Shown here: piece after piece, positions 18 to 13,820 of the stretch | Layout of the letters: every line of letters begins with the position of its first letter | Position numbering within the stretch: the stretch's first letter is position 1 | Assembly: GCA_043813255.1 (NCBI GenBank) | Contig: JBDRLG010000063.1 | Span: 1-52,172 of the forward strand | Length of the DNA: 52,172 nucleotides | Reading direction: 5' to 3' | DNA from: Candidatus Omnitrophota bacterium | GTDB lineage: Bacteria > Omnitrophota > Gorgyraeia > Gygaellales > Profunditerraquicolaceae | Translations under genes and position numbers: made by a program | The notes under the pieces: model-generated | Seen by the model: the letters and a program-made list of their open reading frames with translations, nothing else | What the model was told of the DNA's origin: nothing | Database searches by the model: none

Positions 18-1559
18 ATGATTGAACAAGAATTAACTTTGGAAGAGCTTTATAATCAAAGTATCAAAGTAATACGTGAAGGGCAAATTATCAAAGGAAC
101 GATTGTTTCTATAAAAACAAAAGAAGTTTTAGTGGATGTGGGCTTTAAATCAGAGGGTATCTTGCCTATAGCTGAATTTAGCAAAGAAGATTTAGAAGTA
201 GGCAAAGAAATAGATTTTCTCATAGAATCCATTGAAAATGAAGCAGGGATAATTACTCTTTCCCGCGAAAGGGCAATGCGTATTAAAGGCTGGGACAAGA
301 TAGTTAAAAACCATAATGATGGAGATTTAATTGACGGCAGGCCTGTAAAGAAAGTAAAAGGCGGATTTTTAGTTGATGTCTCCGGAATAGAAGGTTTCCT
401 GCCAGCTTCTTTGTCCGCTTTTAAAGGAGTAGCGGATAAGGATATTCTTAACAAAATGTTTAAGTTTAAAATTGTTAAGGTGAATAATTTTAGGCACAGC
501 ATAATTCTTTCACGCCGCGAAGCAATCCATAAGGAAAAAGAATTTGCTAAAGAAAGAATGTGGATGGAATTAAAGCAGGGAGGGATTTATTCAGGAACAG
601 TAAAAGCGATAACTGATTTCGGAGCTTTTATTGATTTAGGCGGAGTAGATGGGCTGCTGCATATTACAGATATGTCGTGGTCAAAAATCAGCCATCCTTC
701 TGAAATAGTCGCTATGGGGGATAAGATTGAGATTGTGGTTCTTAATTTGGATAAAGATGCCAGTAAGGTATCTCTTGGGTTAAAGCAAAGGTTACCTGAT
801 CCTTGGCAGGATGTTGAATCTAAGTATCAGATAGGCGCTAAAGTTAAGGGTAAGGTTGTAAATATACTGCCTTATGGAGTTTTTGTTGAGCTTGAAAAAG
901 GCATTGAAGGGTTGGTGCATATTTCAGAGATATCCTGGACAAAAAGAGTCAGTAATCCCGGTGAGATGTTCGCGGTAGGTGATATGCTGGAGACTCAGGT
1001 TTTGAGTGTTGATAAAGAAACCCGCAGGATTTCATTAAGCCTTAAACAACTGGAACAGAATCCTTGGCTGGACGCGGAATCAAAATATCCTGTTGGCAGT
1101 AAGATTCAGGGAAAGGTTAGGGGTTTTACAGATTATGGAGCTTTTGTAGAGCTTGATGGAAGCCTTGAGGGGATGATTCATATTTCTGATATGTCTTGGA
1201 CAAAGAGAATAGCTCATCCGCAAGACCTTTTAAAGAAAGGCCAGAAAGTAGATGTGTCTGTTCTTTCTGTAGACGCGCAGAATAGGCGCATTTCTTTAGG
1301 GTTGAAACAGCTTCAAATCAATCCATGGACGGAAATCGCTGAAAAATACCCTTTGGATACTGTTATTGAGGCAGAAGTTGTGAATATAACGGATTTTGGG
1401 ATATTTGTAAAAATTACCGATGAATTGGAAGGGTTGGTTTATGCCAGTGAAATTGATAAAGAAAAAACAGCCCTCTTAAAGCAGGGAGATAAAGTACAGG
1501 TTAAGGTAATGAAAGTAGATGTGGAACAAGCTAAAATCGGGTTGAGTTCGAGAATATAG
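18..1559 (+). CDS. rpsA: 30S ribosomal protein S1
   Basis: Tandem S1 domains (DFGAFIDLGGVDGLLHITDMSW, YGVFVELEKGIEGLVHISEISW, YGAFVELDGSLEGMIHISDMSW). SD AAGGAG upstream. Confidence 0.98.
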   Translation: MIEQELTLEELYNQSIKVIREGQIIKGTIVSIKTKEVLVDVGFKSEGILPIAEFSKEDLEVGKEIDFLIESIENEAGIITLSRERAMRIKGWDKIVKNHNDGDLIDGRPVKKVKGGFLVDVSGIEGFLPASLSAFKGVADKDILNKMFKFKIVKVNNFRHSIILSRREAIHKEKEFAKERMWMELKQGGIYSGTVKAITDFGAFIDLGGVDGLLHITDMSWSKISHPSEIVAMGDKIEIVVLNLDKDASKVSLGLKQRLPDPWQDVESKYQIGAKVKGKVVNILPYGVFVELEKGIEGLVHISEISWTKRVSNPGEMFAVGDMLETQVLSVDKETRRISLSLKQLEQNPWLDAESKYPVGSKIQGKVRGFTDYGAFVELDGSLEGMIHISDMSWTKRIAHPQDLLKKGQKVDVSVLSVDAQNRRISLGLKQLQINPWTEIAEKYPLDTVIEAEVVNITDFGIFVKITDELEGLVYASEIDKEKTALLKQGDKVQVKVMKVDVEQAKIGLSSRI

Positions 1560-1561
1560 AA

Positions 1562-1648
1562 TAGCGTTTAGCGTATAGCGTGTAGCATATAGGAGAAACG
1601 AAACAAAAAAATTCAAACTATCCGCTATACGTTACACGCTATACCCTA
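1562..1648. repeat. Inverted pair of 7-mer tandem arrays (TAGCGTN x4 ... NACGCTA x4) forming an imperfect long hairpin
   Basis: Left arm 1562-1593: tagcgtt tagcgta tagcgtg tagcata tagg. Right arm 1618-1648: cta tccgcta tacgtta cacgcta tacccta. A-rich spacer between. Confidence 0.85.
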
Positions 1649-1657
1649 ATAAAAAAT

Positions 1658-2833
1658 ATGGAAAATATACAAAATCAGTTAGAAATTATTAAACGCGGCG
1701 CGGTTGAAATCGTCTCGGAAGAAGAGCTTAAGAAAAAGTTGGAATATAGTATTGCTAACAATAAGCCTCTTAAAATAAAAGCTGGCTTTGATCCAACTGC
1801 TCCGGATCTTCATTTGGGGCATACTGTTTTATTGAGAAAATTACGCCAGTTTCAGGATTTAGGGCATAAAGTATATTTTTTAATTGGCGATTTTACCGGC
1901 AGGATTGGAGACCCCAGCGGAAGGTCTGAAATAAGGAAACAATTAACTCCCGAGGAAGTCTCTAAAAACGCCGAGACTTATAAAAAACAAGTTTCTAAAA
2001 TTTTGGATATGAATAAATTAGAGGTAGTTTTTAATAGCAGTTGGTTTGAAAAGATGCCGATTTTGGAAATGCTTAAAATTACATCTCATGCTACAGTTGC
2101 TCAGATGACTGCAAGAGCGGATTTCAAAAAAAGGCTGCAGAAGAATGAAGATATTTCTATGCTGGAATTTATGTATCCTCTTTTACAAGGTTATGATTCC
2201 GTGCAATTAGAAGCTGATATAGAATTGGGGGGGACAGATCAGATTTTTAATCTTTTGATTGGCAGAGATATGCAAAAGGATTTTGGCCAATTTCCTCAAG
2301 TGGTTATAACTATGCCTTTGTTAGAGGGCACAGATGGCGTGCAGAAAATGAGCAAGTCTTACGGTAATTATATCGGGATAAATGAAGATGCTTCGCAGAT
2401 ATTTGGCAAGATTATGTCGGTTTCTGATGATTTAATGATCAAATATTATACGCTGTTAACCAATGAAGAACTTGGCCCGATAAGAAGTATGCATCCTAAA
2501 GAAGCAAAGTTGAAACTAGCTGAAATAATCACTTTGCATTACCATTCTAAAGAAGCCGCCCAAAACGCGCGTTTGGAATTTGAGCGGGTATTTAGCTCAA
2601 AAGAACTTCCTCAGGATATGCCGGTAGCCGTGTTGAAATCTGGCAATGCGAATGTTATAGAACTAATGATACAATCGGGTTTGGTAAAAAGTAAAAATGA
2701 AGCCCGCAGGTTGATTCAACAAGACGCGGTTGTCCTTGATGATAAAATATTGAAAGATGAAGAAATAGTTATAGAGAAAGAAGCTGTTTTGAAAGTCGGC
2801 AAAAGGCGGTTTTTGAAATTAGTTAGAGGGTAA
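1658..2833 (+). CDS. tyrS: Tyrosine--tRNA ligase
   Basis: GFDPTAPDLHLGH (HIGH), KMSKS, YPLLQGYD, GGTDQ and a C-terminal S4-like domain (SKNEARRLIQQ...VGKRRF). Confidence 0.98.
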   Translation: MENIQNQLEIIKRGAVEIVSEEELKKKLEYSIANNKPLKIKAGFDPTAPDLHLGHTVLLRKLRQFQDLGHKVYFLIGDFTGRIGDPSGRSEIRKQLTPEEVSKNAETYKKQVSKILDMNKLEVVFNSSWFEKMPILEMLKITSHATVAQMTARADFKKRLQKNEDISMLEFMYPLLQGYDSVQLEADIELGGTDQIFNLLIGRDMQKDFGQFPQVVITMPLLEGTDGVQKMSKSYGNYIGINEDASQIFGKIMSVSDDLMIKYYTLLTNEELGPIRSMHPKEAKLKLAEIITLHYHSKEAAQNARLEFERVFSSKELPQDMPVAVLKSGNANVIELMIQSGLVKSKNEARRLIQQDAVVLDDKILKDEEIVIEKEAVLKVGKRRFLKLVRG

Positions 2834-2872
2834 AAATTAATTTATCATACCCCCTCCCTAGCCCTCCACACA

Positions 2873-3004
2873 GAGACTGGGTTAAATGAAATTGTCATCG
2901 ACGAGACTATTTTGTCATCCCCGAATGTTTTAATCGGGGATCTAAAAATCATCGTCGGAGATTCCCGCTTTCGCGGGAATGACACTCCTATTTGACACAG
3001 TCTC
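2873..3004. mobile_element. 132-bp MITE with 15-bp terminal inverted repeats and CACA target-site duplication
   Basis: Left end GAGACTGGGTTAAAT versus reverse complement of right end GAGACTGTGTCAAAT (13/15). CACA at 2869-2872 and 3005-3008. Confidence 0.8.
2913..2984. repeat. REP-like doublet (TGTCAT...ATGACA ended) inside the MITE
   Basis: tgtcatccccgaatgttttaatcggggatct (2913-2943) and agattcccgctttcgcgggaatgaca (2959-2984). Each half is its own hairpin. Confidence 0.85.
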
Positions 3005-3041
3005 CACAAGGAGGAGGGAAGATTAAAAGGATAATGCAGAA

Positions 3042-4052
3042 GTGAATTCAAAAGATAGATACTCCATAGATCAGCAAAATAGGCTTGTAATTAAACGTAA
3101 AGGAAAGATTCTTCCTGTTAAAGGGCGTTTTGCTGTAGATAAAGATAACCGGCTTTTCTATTGGTTAAATGAACCTGCTGTGTTTAAAAGAGAGCATGGT
3201 TTGCCTTCAAAAATAAATTGGACAGGAAATTTTTCTCTCAGCCCAAATTACGATTTAGTATTTAATTTAAAAGAAACAACTTCTCAGAACCGGCAGGATC
3301 GTTTGGTTCTTAAGGGAAAAATCATTTCTCTAGATAAAGACAGCCTTGTGTTTGAAGTAAAGAGCATTGATAAGCGGGGATTATTATCGGCAAATTTGAT
3401 TAAATTAACCGGCAGTTGGCAGGCAGATGAGTTTAACAGGCTGGTTTTTACCGTGCGTAAAAAGATTTCTGATCATCAACTTATTTTTTCAGGCGCATGG
3501 CAGGTTAATAAAAATCAGCAGATAGAATACCGGTATGAAAAAACCGAGCTAAAAACCAAAAAGAAGTTTTATCATATATTAATATTTAAAGGGCATTGGG
3601 ATATTAATAGCTCTGATAGGCTTAGTTATATACTTTGCAGAAGCACTAAGACAGATTTTGACTTTCGTGTTCAGGCTGAAAGCGCGAATTTATACCCGCG
3701 GGATGGGGTTATTAAATACAGGCTGGGCATAGGATTGAAAAATAACAAGAAAACTAATTATAGAATTATTTCTCTTTATGGAGCCTGGAAGTTTGGGGCT
3801 AATTTAAATTTTTATTTTGATATGGATTATGGCACAAATAAAAAATACAGCATAGGTTTTAATACCAGTTTGGCTTTAAATAAAAAAGATAAGGTTGTCC
3901 TCGCGCTTAAAAAAGGGATGAGAAATCCAATCGGAATGAATTTAGTATTAACGCATTCTTTTTTGAAAAAATTAGACGGGGAGCTTTTTTTAAGGCTGGG
4001 TGGTGACGCGAAAAAACAAAGTGTTGAGGCAGGGGTGCGAATACCGTTTTGA
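3042..4052 (+). CDS. Hypothetical basic protein with repeated Gx(W/F)...L-x-(Y/F) beta units and C-terminal Phe
   Basis: 336-aa ORF with GTG start that fills the gap between two MITEs. Internal repeats visible; no recognised family. Confidence 0.8.
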   Translation: MNSKDRYSIDQQNRLVIKRKGKILPVKGRFAVDKDNRLFYWLNEPAVFKREHGLPSKINWTGNFSLSPNYDLVFNLKETTSQNRQDRLVLKGKIISLDKDSLVFEVKSIDKRGLLSANLIKLTGSWQADEFNRLVFTVRKKISDHQLIFSGAWQVNKNQQIEYRYEKTELKTKKKFYHILIFKGHWDINSSDRLSYILCRSTKTDFDFRVQAESANLYPRDGVIKYRLGIGLKNNKKTNYRIISLYGAWKFGANLNFYFDMDYGTNKKYSIGFNTSLALNKKDKVVLALKKGMRNPIGMNLVLTHSFLKKLDGELFLRLGGDAKKQSVEAGVRIPF

Positions 4053-8011: not shown

Positions 8012-9085
8012 ATGAAATATAATTCTATACTGATTACCGGCGGAGCGGGATTTATTGGCGCTAATTTAGCAGTTTCTTTTAAACGCAAGTATCCCAAATT
8101 AGAAGTTATCGCGCTGGATAATTTAAAAAGACGGGGAAGTGAGATCAATATCAGCCGCCTAAAAGAAAATAATATCCGTTTTGTCCACGGGGATATCCGT
8201 AATCCTGAAGATTTAGTTCTAGATACAAAAATTGAATTATTAATAGATTGTTCCGCGGAGCCTTCAGTACTCGCTGGTTTTGGAGATAATCCAGCGTATA
8301 TTATTAATACTAACCTTATAGGTACTATAAATTGTTTGGAATTAGCGCGGAAAGATAAAGCGGATGTGGTTTTTTTATCGACTAGCCGTGTATACCCGTA
8401 TGAAACTATTAATAATATAAAAACTGTTGAGTTGGATACGAGGTTTGAATGGCAGGATAATCAAATTATTAGCGGTTGGTCAAATAAAGGTATAGATATT
8501 AATTTTACTACTGATGGGGCAAAAACTCTTTATAGCGCGACAAAACTTTGTTCAGAAATAATATTACGAGAATATTTAACTATGTATGGTATTAAAGGTA
8601 TAATAAACCGCTGCGGAGTAATTGCCGGCCCTGGGCAGTTTGGCAAATCCGATCAAGGAGTTTTTACTTATTGGATGCTGGCGCATTATTTTAAAAAAGA
8701 ATTAAAATATATCGGTTTTGGCGGCAAGGGTAAACAAGTACGGGATCTTTTGGATATAGAAGATTTTTTTACGTTGATTGATTTACAGGTAGAATGTTTA
8801 GAGAGAATTAACGGGAAAATTTATAATGTAGGAGGCGGCCTGGATATAAGCCTCTCTTTGCTTGAAACCACCGCTCTTTGTGAAAAGATAAGCGGAAATC
8901 ATGTTAATATAACAGAAGATAAAAACACGCGGCAAGGGGATATAAATATTTATTTAACTGATAATAACAGAGTTTTAGCTGATTTAGGCTGGGCGCCCAA
9001 AAAGGCACCGTTAGAAATTTTATCTGGAATTTTTGATTGGATTAAAAATAATGAAAAAAAATTAAGTAAGTTATTCTTAAATTAA
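8012..9085 (+). CDS. NAD-dependent epimerase/dehydratase, CDP-paratose 2-epimerase-like
   Basis: [44 protein letters not shown]. Confidence 0.88.
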   Translation: MKYNSILITGGAGFIGANLAVSFKRKYPKLEVIALDNLKRRGSEINISRLKENNIRFVHGDIRNPEDLVLDTKIELLIDCSAEPSVLAGFGDNPAYIINTNLIGTINCLELARKDKADVVFLSTSRVYPYETINNIKTVELDTRFEWQDNQIISGWSNKGIDINFTTDGAKTLYSATKLCSEIILREYLTMYGIKGIINRCGVIAGPGQFGKSDQGVFTYWMLAHYFKKELKYIGFGGKGKQVRDLLDIEDFFTLIDLQVECLERINGKIYNVGGGLDISLSLLETTALCEKISGNHVNITEDKNTRQGDINIYLTDNNRVLADLGWAPKKAPLEILSGIFDWIKNNEKKLSKLFLN

Positions 9086-9103: not shown

Positions 9104-9364
9104 ATGTTTTGGCATGTAATCGGTTCAACAGCGGCATTCTTAACGATGTTTTCTTTTATTCCGCAGATTATTAAGATTAAAAATAGCAAGTCTGCGGGTG
9201 ATATCAGCTTAATTACAATAATTCAGCTTTCTACAGGGGTATTTCTGTGGTTAGTTTACGGCATATATCTTAAAAATTTTATTATCATAACAGCTAACAG
9301 CGTTACTTTGGTTACGTTAATAATAATAGTATTTTTTTATTTTAAGTATAGAAGGCAAAACTAA
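9104..9364 (+). CDS. SemiSWEET (PQ-loop) sugar transporter
   Basis: 86 aa with three hydrophobic segments; FIPQIIK PQ motif, DISL, LWLVYG, IIITAN. Confidence 0.9.
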
Positions 9365-9381
9365 AATGGGCATATAAAAAC

Positions 9382-11703
9382 ATGAAAAAGAAAAAAGCGC
9401 TTATTACAGGGATCACCGGACAGGATGGCTCATATTTAGCAGAATTGCTTCTTTCAAAAGGATATGAAGTGCATGGTATTATAAGGCGGGCAAGCACGTT
9501 TAATACAGGGAGAATTAATCATATTTATATGGATCCGCATTCTAAAGGGGCCAAGTTATTCTTGCATTATGGCGATATTTCTGATGCCGAACAAATTAAT
9601 AATATTGTATTTAATATAAAGCCGGATGAAATTTACCATTTGGCAGCTCAGAGCCATGTACGGGTTAGTTTTGATATCCCCGAATACACGGGAAATATTA
9701 CTGCTTTAGGCACAACACGTATTTTAGAGGCAATCCGCCGCAGCGGCAGGAAAATTAAGTTTTATCAGGCTTCATCCAGTGAACTTTTTGGTTCAGCGCT
9801 TCCTCCGCAGTCAGAAACTACTCAATTCCAGCCGCAAAGCCCTTATGCCTGCGCCAAGCTTTATTCATATTGGCTTACAAAAAATTACCGCGATGGGTAT
9901 GGTATATTCGCCTCAAACGGAGTGCTTTTCAATCACGAAACAGTGGTTTCATTTATGCCAATGTTTTGTAAAAAAATAGGGGAAGAGTGTTTTGATATTA
10001 AGCCGCTTGCTGAAATTGTTCCTTTTGACGAATCCATAAAGCAATATCAGTCGCGCGAGGTCTCTGGTATTTTTGTGTGGGGAAAAGGCGGGTGGGTTGA
10101 CGTAAAATATGCTTCGGCATATCCTCATGATGTTAAGAAAAATAATAAGAACCCAAAATTTATAAATTCGCGTTCTGGAGCATTTATGGCTACATCGAGC
10201 CATGTTGGATTTATGTGCGGCAATATTGAAAAAGAAGTGGGGAATATGGCTATAGGTGATTGTTTGGAAACTATTGATTTGCCTGAAAGTAATGCGGATT
10301 CTTTTATTATGCCGCTGGTTACCGAAAAAGAAGCGGAACTTTTGGGTATGATGGTAGGCGATGGGACGTTTACTTGTGAAAAAAAAGGGATTGGCATACA
10401 TGGAAAATTCACTAATTCATCTCCTCAAATAAGAAAACGTTTTGATTATTTGTGGTCGGTAGTTACAGGAGGATATACGAAATATTATCCAACACGATCG
10501 GGGTTTAATCCGGATAAGATAGTTGGACAGCTTCGCCTTAATGGATTTAATGAATGGCTAAGAAATATAGATATTTATAATAAAGACAGGACTAAACGTG
10601 TCCCAAAAAGAATCCTTAATTCACAACTGCCTGTAATGCTTGCTTTTCTGCGAGGATATAATGCAACAGATGGCCTAAAAAGTAATCTATGTATATATGA
10701 GTTCAAAAATTTCAAGACCAATTCGGCAACCTTAGCTATGGGATTATGGTATCTTATTGAAAAAACCACAAAACAGAGTATTAATTTAACTGTTGAAACC
10801 AAAGAAGACGGCCGAATTTTTTATTCGTTGAATTTATTATCTACTGTGGATAATGTTTCAAAAGAATATACGGTAAAGGAATTGGTGTTGGAAGGGGCAT
10901 CTCAGCGGGAAATGTCCCGCTTGACGGGTATTTCAAGAACTTTTATACGAAAAATTCAATGCGGTGGCTTTGCTTGTCCGGAACATCATCTTCACAAGAA
11001 CCCTCTTGAAATAAAAAAGATTATTGAGATGCCAAATTATCAGGGATGGTTTTATGATTTAGAGACAACTTCCGGAGAATTCCATTGTGGTATTGGAAAA
11101 ATTCATGTGCATAATTCTCCAAGGCGTGGAGAAACATTTGTCAGCAGAAAGATTACTCGTGCAGTGGCTGATATTATAGTTGGTAAGCAGGATAAGCTTT
11201 ATCTGGGGAATCTTGAGGCTAAGAGGGATTGGGGTTTTGCTCCGGAATACGCACAGATGATGTGGCTGATGTTGCAGCAGGACAAGCCTGATGATTATGT
11301 CATAGGCACAGGAGAAAGCCATTCAGTAAAAGAATTTGTTGAACAATCTTTTAAATACGCGGGGATAACATTAGTTTGGGAAGGCAGAGGGGTAAAAGAA
11401 AAAGGCTTTATAAAACATTTAGACAAACAGGTAACGAAGATAAATAAAAGATTAGCAATAGGTAATGCGTTAATTGTAATAGACCCGCGATATTTCCGTC
11501 CTAACGAAGTAAATCATTTACGCGCGGATATATCAAAAGCAAAACAGTATCTTAAGTGGCAGCCGAAGATTAATTTTAATACTCTCGTTCAAATTATGGT
11601 TGATTATGATTTAAAGTCTGCAGGGATTATACCGTCAGGCAAGGGAATACAATATTGTAAAGACGCGGGGTTAGACTATACAAATCATGAGTATAGTAAA
11701 TAG
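9382..11703 (+). CDS. gmd: GDP-mannose 4,6-dehydratase, intein-containing precursor
   Basis: [44 protein letters not shown] / [18 protein letters not shown]. Removing residues 187-578 leaves a normal-sized 381-aa Gmd. Confidence 0.97.
9940..11115 (+). mobile_element. Intein with LAGLIDADG homing endonuclease (392 aa)
   Basis: Interrupts NHE|SP. Block B TSSH; LAGLIDADG blocks LLGMMVGDG and [10 protein letters not shown]; block F FYDLET; ends HVHN followed by Ser+1. Confidence 0.95.
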
Positions 11704-11716
11704 CTTCTAATTATAA

Positions 11717-13820
<2,104 letters not shown>

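Follow-up and report, generated by a model that had tools for sequence, protein, structure and literature searches.

Here, we report on the gene for GDP-mannose 4,6-dehydratase (Gmd) on contig JBDRLG010000063.1 of a Candidatus Omnitrophota bacterium (assembly GCA_043813255.1). The window, i.e., the whole stretch of DNA that was analysed, comprises 52,172 nt. Its gmd gene is a single open reading frame (ORF; 9382..11703, + strand, 773 aa) that is interrupted by an intein (9940-11115, + strand; 1176 nt, 392 aa, protein residues 187-578) starting with threonine. By analogy with known inteins, we consider it likely (probability of about 0.8) that this is an active and mobile class 1 intein within the NHE/SPRRG segment of Gmd, which uses its first residue (Thr1) for the N-O acyl shift. 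What we show directly is how the element is built and folded, that it is conserved and under purifying selection, that it bears signals of mobility, and that Thr1 extends across the family. Thr1 is the natural conserved state of a large intein clade and not a one-off change.

What is new relative to print is a class 1 chemistry with a nucleophile that is allowed on paper and reported as unobserved. In the accessible portions of the literature, to which all our statements on cited papers refer, Thr1 was described as never seen in nature (Tori et al. 2010, PMC2807308), class 1 was defined by Ser1, Thr1 or Cys1 (Tori et al. 2016, PMC5222942), and a 2023 Frontiers review names cysteine or serine only as first intein residue. 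Splicing has been reported for an engineered S1T variant of the Tli Pol-2 intein (cited in Tori et al. 2010, PMC2807308). Another published intein resides in the UDP-glucose/GDP-mannose dehydrogenase, not in the dehydratase. Neither a natural Thr1 intein nor an intein in Gmd is described in the papers that we retrieved from the openly searchable literature (subscription journals, InBase and bioRxiv supplements lie outside this search).

Insertion site and host gene

The original prediction had placed the insert between E186 and S579 and expected a ligated Gmd of 381 aa. Coordinates, flanking residues and spliced length were all reproduced from the DNA and the ORF. The two parts of the host gene are:

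9382..9939, + strand: gmd N-extein, residues 1-186, ending GVLFNHE (first PF16363/TIGR01472 stretch, residues 4-200)
11116..11703, + strand: gmd C-extein, from SPRRGETF to the stop codon (second TIGR01472 stretch, 11080-11619)

The DNA of the N-junction (9937-9945 region) reads AAT CAC GAA / ACA GTG GTT, such that E186 precedes Thr1. At the C-junction (11104-11124; CAT GTG CAT AAT / TCT CCA AGG), S579 follows the terminal Asn392. Excision of the intein in silico yields a 381-aa Gmd in which the FNHE/SPRRGETF motif is restored. The exteins score 525.4 bits against TIGR01472 (cut-off 415), which assigns them to this family, and 455.7 bits against PF16363, each time in two stretches. The Tyr-x-x-x-Lys motif of the short-chain dehydrogenases/reductases (SDR) is retained, with Y155 and K159, as well as E134, being invariant in the A1 alignment. 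The same holds for N184, H185, E186, S579, P580 and R582 of the NHE/SPRRG insertion segment.

It had also been proposed to confirm base 9940, given that TCA instead of ACA would turn Thr1 into serine. Two Logan contigs, which stem from two runs and two studies, cross the N-junction without any difference (X1 record 4, 9879-10091; X2 record 9, 9801-10095). Both read ACA and TCA was not seen at 9940-9942, where these are contigs of low depth (3.2 and 2) and not raw reads, and X1 is possibly the window's own sample. No alternative letters at 9940-9942 are listed among the aligned run contigs. Neither was an intein-free allele of the same gene, i.e., a 9939-to-11116 joint, found in the aligned contigs, which give patchy cover. 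Two joints considered as intein-free alleles (9692>11259 and 9791>11287) were rejected: their pieces show many differences and are read as gmd of other organisms.

Threonine 1 in same-site inteins

A word-indexed protein search with the intein region returned 385 proteins at E <= 1e-3. The best 120 of these 385 matches are all Gmd proteins whose insert occupies this very site (identity 83-43%). When only the intein served as query in an exhaustive search of cluster representatives, 354 matches were obtained. We tabulated residue 1 for all inteins at this site that could be parsed, as had been suggested with the original prediction. Among the proteins, 114 show Thr, 19 Cys and 10 Ser (143 parsed of 269, window included; the 126 unparsed ones are fragments or have other hosts). 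Metagenome loci (61 parsed of 79) give Thr 56, Ser 3 and Cys 1; the remaining locus L056 was mis-split, and its protein P0028 reads Thr at residue 1. For loci on viral contigs, some of which are labelled as giant-virus metagenome-assembled genomes (MAGs), we find 16 Thr, 1 Cys and no Ser (17 parsed of 20). That is, no parsed same-site intein from the protein, metagenome or viral sets has a non-nucleophile at position 1.

Thr1 is encoded by ACG (25), ACA (18), ACT (10) and ACC (3) in the metagenome loci, while Ser is AGT and Cys is TGC. Since all four Thr codons are in use, selection acts on the amino acid, and the recurrence of Thr in relatives with four different codons rules out a sequencing slip as explanation. 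The named bacterial MAG loci (5 Omnitrophota and 3 from the Patescibacteria group) are all Thr1 (ACG in 6, ACA in 2). The inteins of two DPANN archaeal MAGs, which are 40% and 36% identical to that of the window, start with Cys.

The expectation of a 'rare' Thr1 intein thus holds for the literature but not for the same-site family with its more than 100 Thr1 members. The alternative suggestion of a private Ser-to-Thr variant (TCA to ACA) fails, given that Thr1 is conserved in 112/117 leaves of its clade (see below) and that the Ser codons seen within this clade are AGT.

Splicing blocks and fold

The features of the intein (all + strand) are:

9940..11115: intein; splicing domain split by a LAGLIDADG endonuclease and a helix-turn-helix (HTH)-like segment (boundaries, Foldseek, profile match)
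9940..9942: Thr1 codon ACA, proposed N-terminal nucleophile (from the DNA; Thr in 114/143 same-site inteins)
10126..10128: His63 (CAT), clade-specific, at the putative place of the motif NX histidine (His in 110/114 Thr1 inteins)
10192..10203: block B (N3) T85-S-S-H88 (Thr clade: T 98%, H 99%; basal Cys/Ser group: both 100%)
10336..10368: LAGLIDADG motif 1 with D141 and G142 (G136, D141 and G142 100% in the Thr clade; aligns with 2cw7 and 7qss)
10636..10677: LAGLIDADG motif 2 with D244 and G245 (D244 97%, G245 99%; aligned to LAFLEGYFIGDG of 2cw7)
10861..10965: HTH-like segment, residues 308-342 (weak HTH_28 match, E 0.056)
11044..11085: block F (C2) GWFYD373LETTSGEFH382 (D373 in 111/114 and H382 in 104/114 Thr1 inteins; D373 codon 11056-11058)
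11086..11118: block G (C1) CGIGKIHVH391N392, followed by Ser+1 (TCT, 11116-11118) (N392 100%)

Block B TSSH, block F FYDL and the terminal HVHN are found as previously claimed. The terminal HN is present in 131/143 same-site inteins and Ser+1 in 143/143. Within the Thr clade, the catalytic places T85, H88, D373, H391-N392, D141 and D244 are 97-100% conserved. The HTH-like segment is found in the Thr clade and in its archaeal Cys1 relatives (L016, L017), and is gapped in 79-88% of the basal Cys/Ser group.

We modelled the whole precursor with AlphaFold2 based on a 64-row alignment (mean predicted local distance difference test score 88.2; low only at the junctions 183-186 and 579-583). Foldseek relates the exteins of the model to solved Gmd structures (template modelling score on the target ~0.9) and the insert to endonuclease-bearing inteins, namely TliVMA (7qsu, E 4e-17), PI-PkoII (2cw7, 1.8e-14) and PI-PfuI (1dq3). 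Similarly, a 10-row profile of the intein matches PI-PkoII (2cw7) among PDB chains with E 1e-4, where both LAGLIDADG motifs as well as blocks F and G are aligned. In these comparisons with PDB chains (single sequence and 10-row profile), only the endonuclease and the C-terminal blocks aligned, i.e., the N-terminal half including H63 remained unaligned. Within Pfam, PF14528 (LAGLIDADG_3) reaches 21 bits on the precursor, under its cut-off of 22.5. Judged by the model, the insert is an intein with a HINT-type splicing fold and a LAGLIDADG domain. Both motifs of the latter carry the catalytic acidic residue, so that the domain appears to be a homing endonuclease, with homing itself being deduced from the mobility signals.

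Splicing class and proposed mechanism

Taken together, we find an in-frame insert with HINT fold, Thr1 as putative nucleophile, a block B TxxH, a block F Asp, and a terminal HN followed by Ser+1, i.e., the features of class 1. The signatures of the other classes are absent, as had been predicted for a natural Thr1 intein in Gmd. Class 3 membership was rejected because the places of its Trp-Cys-Thr (WCT) triplet are occupied by G90, D373 and V390 in the window and family-wide by A/V/C/G, Asp (111/114) and Val (104/114). Class 2 membership (KlbA type, Ala1) was rejected because position 1 is strictly T/S/C. C383 of block G was rejected as an obligate nucleophile, it being Cys in 90/114 and Ala in 20/114 Thr1 inteins. 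Given that no Cys of the splicing domain is invariant and that WCT is missing, no alternative nucleophile is apparent.

We infer the occurrence of splicing and the role of Thr1 as nucleophile by analogy. In the mechanism we propose, which follows that of Ser1 inteins, the Thr1 hydroxyl would attack the carbonyl of Glu-1 (N-O acyl shift), aided by T85/H88 of block B, D373 of block F and possibly the clade-specific H63. Ser+1 would then accept the N-extein by transesterification, and cyclisation of N392, assisted by H391, would free the intein. A final O-N shift would join FNHE-SPRRG into the 381-aa Gmd. The LAGLIDADG domain, in turn, would spread the element by homing into intein-free gmd alleles.

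Splicing could also be intact with Thr1 as a mere bystander, such that Ser+1 (class-2-like) or an internal residue, e.g., C383 (class-3-like), attacks the N-terminal bond. The secondary alcohol of Thr is the poorer nucleophile, C383 is common, and the literature, within the portions noted above, lists Cys and Ser only at position 1. However, at a bystander position one would expect drift to Ala, Gly or Pro, the situation in classes 2 and 3, while position 1 is T, S or C in all same-site inteins that were parsed. The Ala at C383 and the residues at the WCT places, both given above, argue against an internal nucleophile. With regard to Ser+1, class 2 KlbA inteins use Cys+1, in contrast to the Ser+1 of all 143 Gmd inteins. 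We thus regard a bystander role of Thr1 as improbable.

Selection and mobility

For the three least saturated pairs, we find an intein dN/dS (ratio of nonsynonymous to synonymous divergence) of ~0.10-0.12 (0.081/0.724; 0.109/0.924). The extein comparison (0.131/1.715) is similar. The mean identity among the 108 full-length Thr1 proteins is 54.0% for the intein and 54.5% for the extein, with no more than a loose correlation between them (r = 0.43, 5778 pairs). For instance, the pairs P0076/P0078 and P0078/P0079 show inteins that are 95-97% identical within exteins that are 59-63% identical. Read at the sequence level, such near-identical inteins in diverged gmd exteins are a signature of recent transfer or homing.

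The distribution is sporadic. When 401 genomes were sampled from the phylum of the window, matches came from 6, and 4 of these are of the close Thr1 type. Two genomes from the window's own family (L023, G294:C78; L024, G312:C33) instead carry a Ser1 (AGT) intein at the same Gmd site that is 29% identical, starts with SLPKNSPV and ends with KIHN/SPRRG. At least three intein lineages (Thr1, Cys1, Ser1) compete for the NHE/SPRRG site. Repeated invasion of a conserved active-site segment implies that persistence requires splicing.

These data bear on the possibility that the insert does not splice at all, i.e., that gmd is dead or that Gmd tolerates a 392-aa insertion as a domesticated or decaying intein. 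Inteins often lose their activity through Cys1-to-Ser and like changes (Pasch et al. 2023, PMC10189870), and the assembly holds a second, intein-free Gmd-like gene. A dead insert, however, should be followed by decay of both gene and insert, which is contradicted by the strong purifying selection observed on both intein and extein. In addition, the catalytic splice residues are retained at 98-100%, the insert splits the invariant NHE/SPRRG segment, and the near-identical inteins in diverged exteins indicate recent spread. As for the second Gmd-like gene, it is truncated and diverged, and its contig measures only 4.5 kb. On balance, a non-splicing insert is slightly less credible still than a bystander Thr1.

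It had further been predicted that splicing gates GDP-fucose synthesis. The intein indeed splits the active-site segment of gmd beside fcl, and the unspliced Gmd precursor is probably inactive. However, we found no evidence of regulated or conditional splicing, which leaves the gating part of the claim unsupported. In its strongest form, this explanation assumes that the Thr1 intein is active and that its N-O shift, being slow or conditional, was recruited to switch GDP-fucose synthesis post-translationally. The insertion in the active-site segment of a gene adjoining fcl, the intein's evolution being as slow as that of the host gene, and the conditional splicing documented for other inteins (in the accessible literature) would fit. 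The sporadic distribution (6/401) and the homing signatures fit a selfish element instead, and we consider such a switch very unlikely.

Finally, Thr1 could be an error of sequencing or assembly, or a Ser-to-Thr mutation private to this genome, given that TCA and ACA differ by one base only. This is refuted for practical purposes by ACA in two contigs from two runs, by ACG or ACA in 8/8 named bacterial MAG loci, and by Thr codons in 56/61 parsed metagenome loci.

Two size variants were observed among the Gmd inteins and their proteins. The Thr1 Gmd inteins of viral contigs (L120-L124, two of them labelled GVMAG) span 446-450 aa instead of ~390 and end with RIHN. P0077 (1112 aa) and P0024 (1076 aa) are unusually long Gmd-intein proteins. 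For P0077, a PF14890 intein domain is precomputed and the NHE junction is found at residue 563, which points to a fusion or to a further intein that lies upstream of the Thr1 intein.

Origin of the threonine clade

We computed a midpoint-rooted FastTree tree of the same-site inteins. One clade of 117 leaves holds 112 Thr, 3 Ser and 2 Cys inteins, while Cys (17), Ser (7) and Thr (2) make up the remaining 26 leaves. The sister of the Thr clade is the Ser1 intein P0142. This is suggestive of a polarity Cys to Ser to Thr at position 1, where each change (TGY to AGY to ACY) is a single step.

The Thr clade is separated from its Cys/Ser relatives by A58, S59, P62, H63, P72, F371, Y372 and H382 as well as by the HTH-like segment. 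Of these, H63 stands out by its position. It is His in 110/114 Thr1 inteins (98% in the Thr clade) compared to 4/19 Cys1 and 4/10 Ser1 inteins, and it is located 25 residues before H88 of block B, where the long strand 237-248 of the model ends. In P0142, the Ser1 sister, the columns of P62/H63 read Arg-His. Pasch et al. 2023 (PMC10189870) describe a histidine of motif NX that is present in Ser1/Ser+1(Thr+1) inteins only and that splicing requires in three of them. It precedes the block B His by 23 (Psp Pol-1, H73/H96) or 22 residues (Mvu-M7 Pol-3, H64/H86) and adjoins Ser1 in structures (PMC10189870). We propose, by analogy, that H63 may be the equivalent of this histidine.

More tentatively, and with doubts that outweigh our confidence, we suggest that Thr1 together with H63, S59, F371/Y372 and H382 might define a positively maintained 'threonine oxyester' subclass of class 1. 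It would have evolved via Cys1 and Ser1 to Thr1 at the Gmd site and spread by homing among Omnitrophota, Patescibacteria and giant-virus contigs. Its active site would then prefer a beta-branched alcohol, i.e., go beyond tolerating it.

Outside the main Thr clade, P0239 and P0217 are Thr1 Gmd inteins (TNT.ETPV) that lack H63 and have Thr instead of Asp at column 373. Their sequences may reflect an independent Thr1 origin with a different active-site solution.

Several observations weigh against an active Thr1 intein or against parts of the history outlined here. The node uniting the Thr clade has a FastTree support of only 0.476, and the protein sample is skewed toward the query's relatives. 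The covariation of H63 and Thr1 amounts to about one clade, i.e., one evolutionary event, and H63 is preceded by Pro, in contrast to the Lys/Arg described as invariable in motif NX. For most pairs, dS is near saturation. No RNA run was listed in the sequencing-run search for the locus. Furthermore, none of the Pfam intein/Hint models matches the precursor at E <= 0.1, and PF14890, when searched over the whole genome, matched two other inteins but not the Gmd intein. Because these models are silent, it is the fold and the positions of the motifs that relate the N-terminal half to known inteins.

Relation to known inteins

The oxyester Ser1/Ser+1(Thr+1) inteins, e.g., Tko Pol-2 (PI-PkoII, 2cw7), Psp-GBD Pol-1, Mvu-M7 Pol-3 and PolB16 OarG (PMC10189870), resemble the Gmd intein by hydroxyl nucleophiles (in the latter case putative) at both junctions. 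Also shared are TxxH in block B, Asp in block F, the terminal His-Asn, and LAGLIDADG in the large forms. H63 may further correspond to their extra His, the distance to the block B His being 22-25 residues overall. PI-PkoII (2cw7) is both the best sequence-profile match to the Gmd intein and a Foldseek match. Unlike these, the Gmd intein has Thr1 instead of Ser1, its extra His follows Pro instead of Lys/Arg, it interrupts a sugar-nucleotide dehydratase and not a DNA polymerase, and the Pfam intein models miss its splicing domain.

The engineered S1T Tli Pol-2 intein shares Thr1 in a class 1 intein, with splicing reported in that case. It is a laboratory substitution, while the Thr1 of the Gmd intein is natural, selected, and accompanied by the co-varying A58, S59, P62, H63, F371, Y372 and H382.

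The Cys1/Ser1 inteins at the Gmd site (e.g., L016 from Nanoarchaeota, L017 from Woesearchaeota, and L023/L024) have the same NHE/SPRRG insertion and a homologous endonuclease core at 29-40% identity. They differ in starting with Cys (TGC/TGT) or Ser (AGT), most of them are without H63, and several end with SN, AN or GN.

Class 3 inteins (prototype MP-Be DnaB; Tori et al. 2010, PMC2807308) are alike in having a residue 1 other than Cys/Ser and Ser/Thr at +1. They require Trp(B:12)-Cys(F:4)-Thr(G:5), however, where the Gmd intein has Gly, Asp and Val and no invariant Cys.

Splicing chemistry was worked out on Cys1 and Ser1 inteins. A large, conserved and mobile Thr1 family would show nature using a secondary alcohol. 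It provides dozens of natural Thr1 sequences to probe what enables this, with H63, S59, F371, Y372 and H382 as candidates. With C383 unconserved, the Thr1 family is also a candidate set of cysteine-independent inteins, which are in demand as tools because they need no reducing agents (PMC10189870). If the 'threonine oxyester' subclass holds true, it would be a new natural source of such inteins and a test case for the activation of a secondary alcohol. Since the standard Pfam models miss the splicing domain, intein censuses of ultra-small bacteria and giant viruses are probably undercounts. In addition, a sugar-nucleotide enzyme joins the list of intein hosts.

Genomic context

The neighbours of gmd in the window are:

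8012-9085: SDR epimerase/dehydratase gene, upstream of the SemiSWEET gene
9104-9364, + strand: SemiSWEET transporter gene, 86 aa, between the SDR gene and gmd (NF037968, 80.1 bits, cut-off 80)
11756..12703, + strand: fcl-like gene (GDP-L-fucose synthase), 52 nt downstream of gmd (NF047922 is the best family with 306.8 bits, below the 500-bit cut-off)

Further related genes are located elsewhere in the assembly:

G000:C42:3849-4478, - strand (locus L002, 1486-2204): second Gmd-like gene, intein-free with NHESPRR intact (TIGR01472, 220.9 bits; 195-aa fragment cut by the contig end)
G000:C11:2857-3939, + strand (locus L025, ORF 1099-3084): canonical Cys1 intein with LAGLIDADG domain (PF14890, 55.1 bits)
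G000:C76:8754-9935, - strand (locus L026, ORF 394-3243): GyrB-like protein with canonical Cys1 intein (DSAGG/CFSGDTQV to GVFVHN/SAKQGRDRR)
G000:C76:21558-22049, + strand (loci L028/L029): open frame of 313 aa that exceeds the LAGLIDADG_3 cut-off twice (31.6 and 24.3 bits)

The second Gmd-like gene reads CTSNMFG compared to SSSELFG in the window's Gmd, i.e., it has Asn at the place of the invariant E134. This may indicate a paralogue of different activity, or the contig may come from another organism. As an intein-free allele it was rejected, because the DNA around the site is too diverged and belongs to a different gene.

The L025 intein extends from EAYMN/CLSIDSLV to GIVVHN/TGVQ (Cys1, His-Asn, Thr+1) within a host that we take, from reading the sequence, to be the beta subunit of a thiamine-diphosphate 2-oxoacid:ferredoxin oxidoreductase. 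Given the GyrB-like intein, the same organism also carries ordinary Cys1 inteins. The L028/L029 frame may represent a homing endonuclease that stands by itself, or a further intein.

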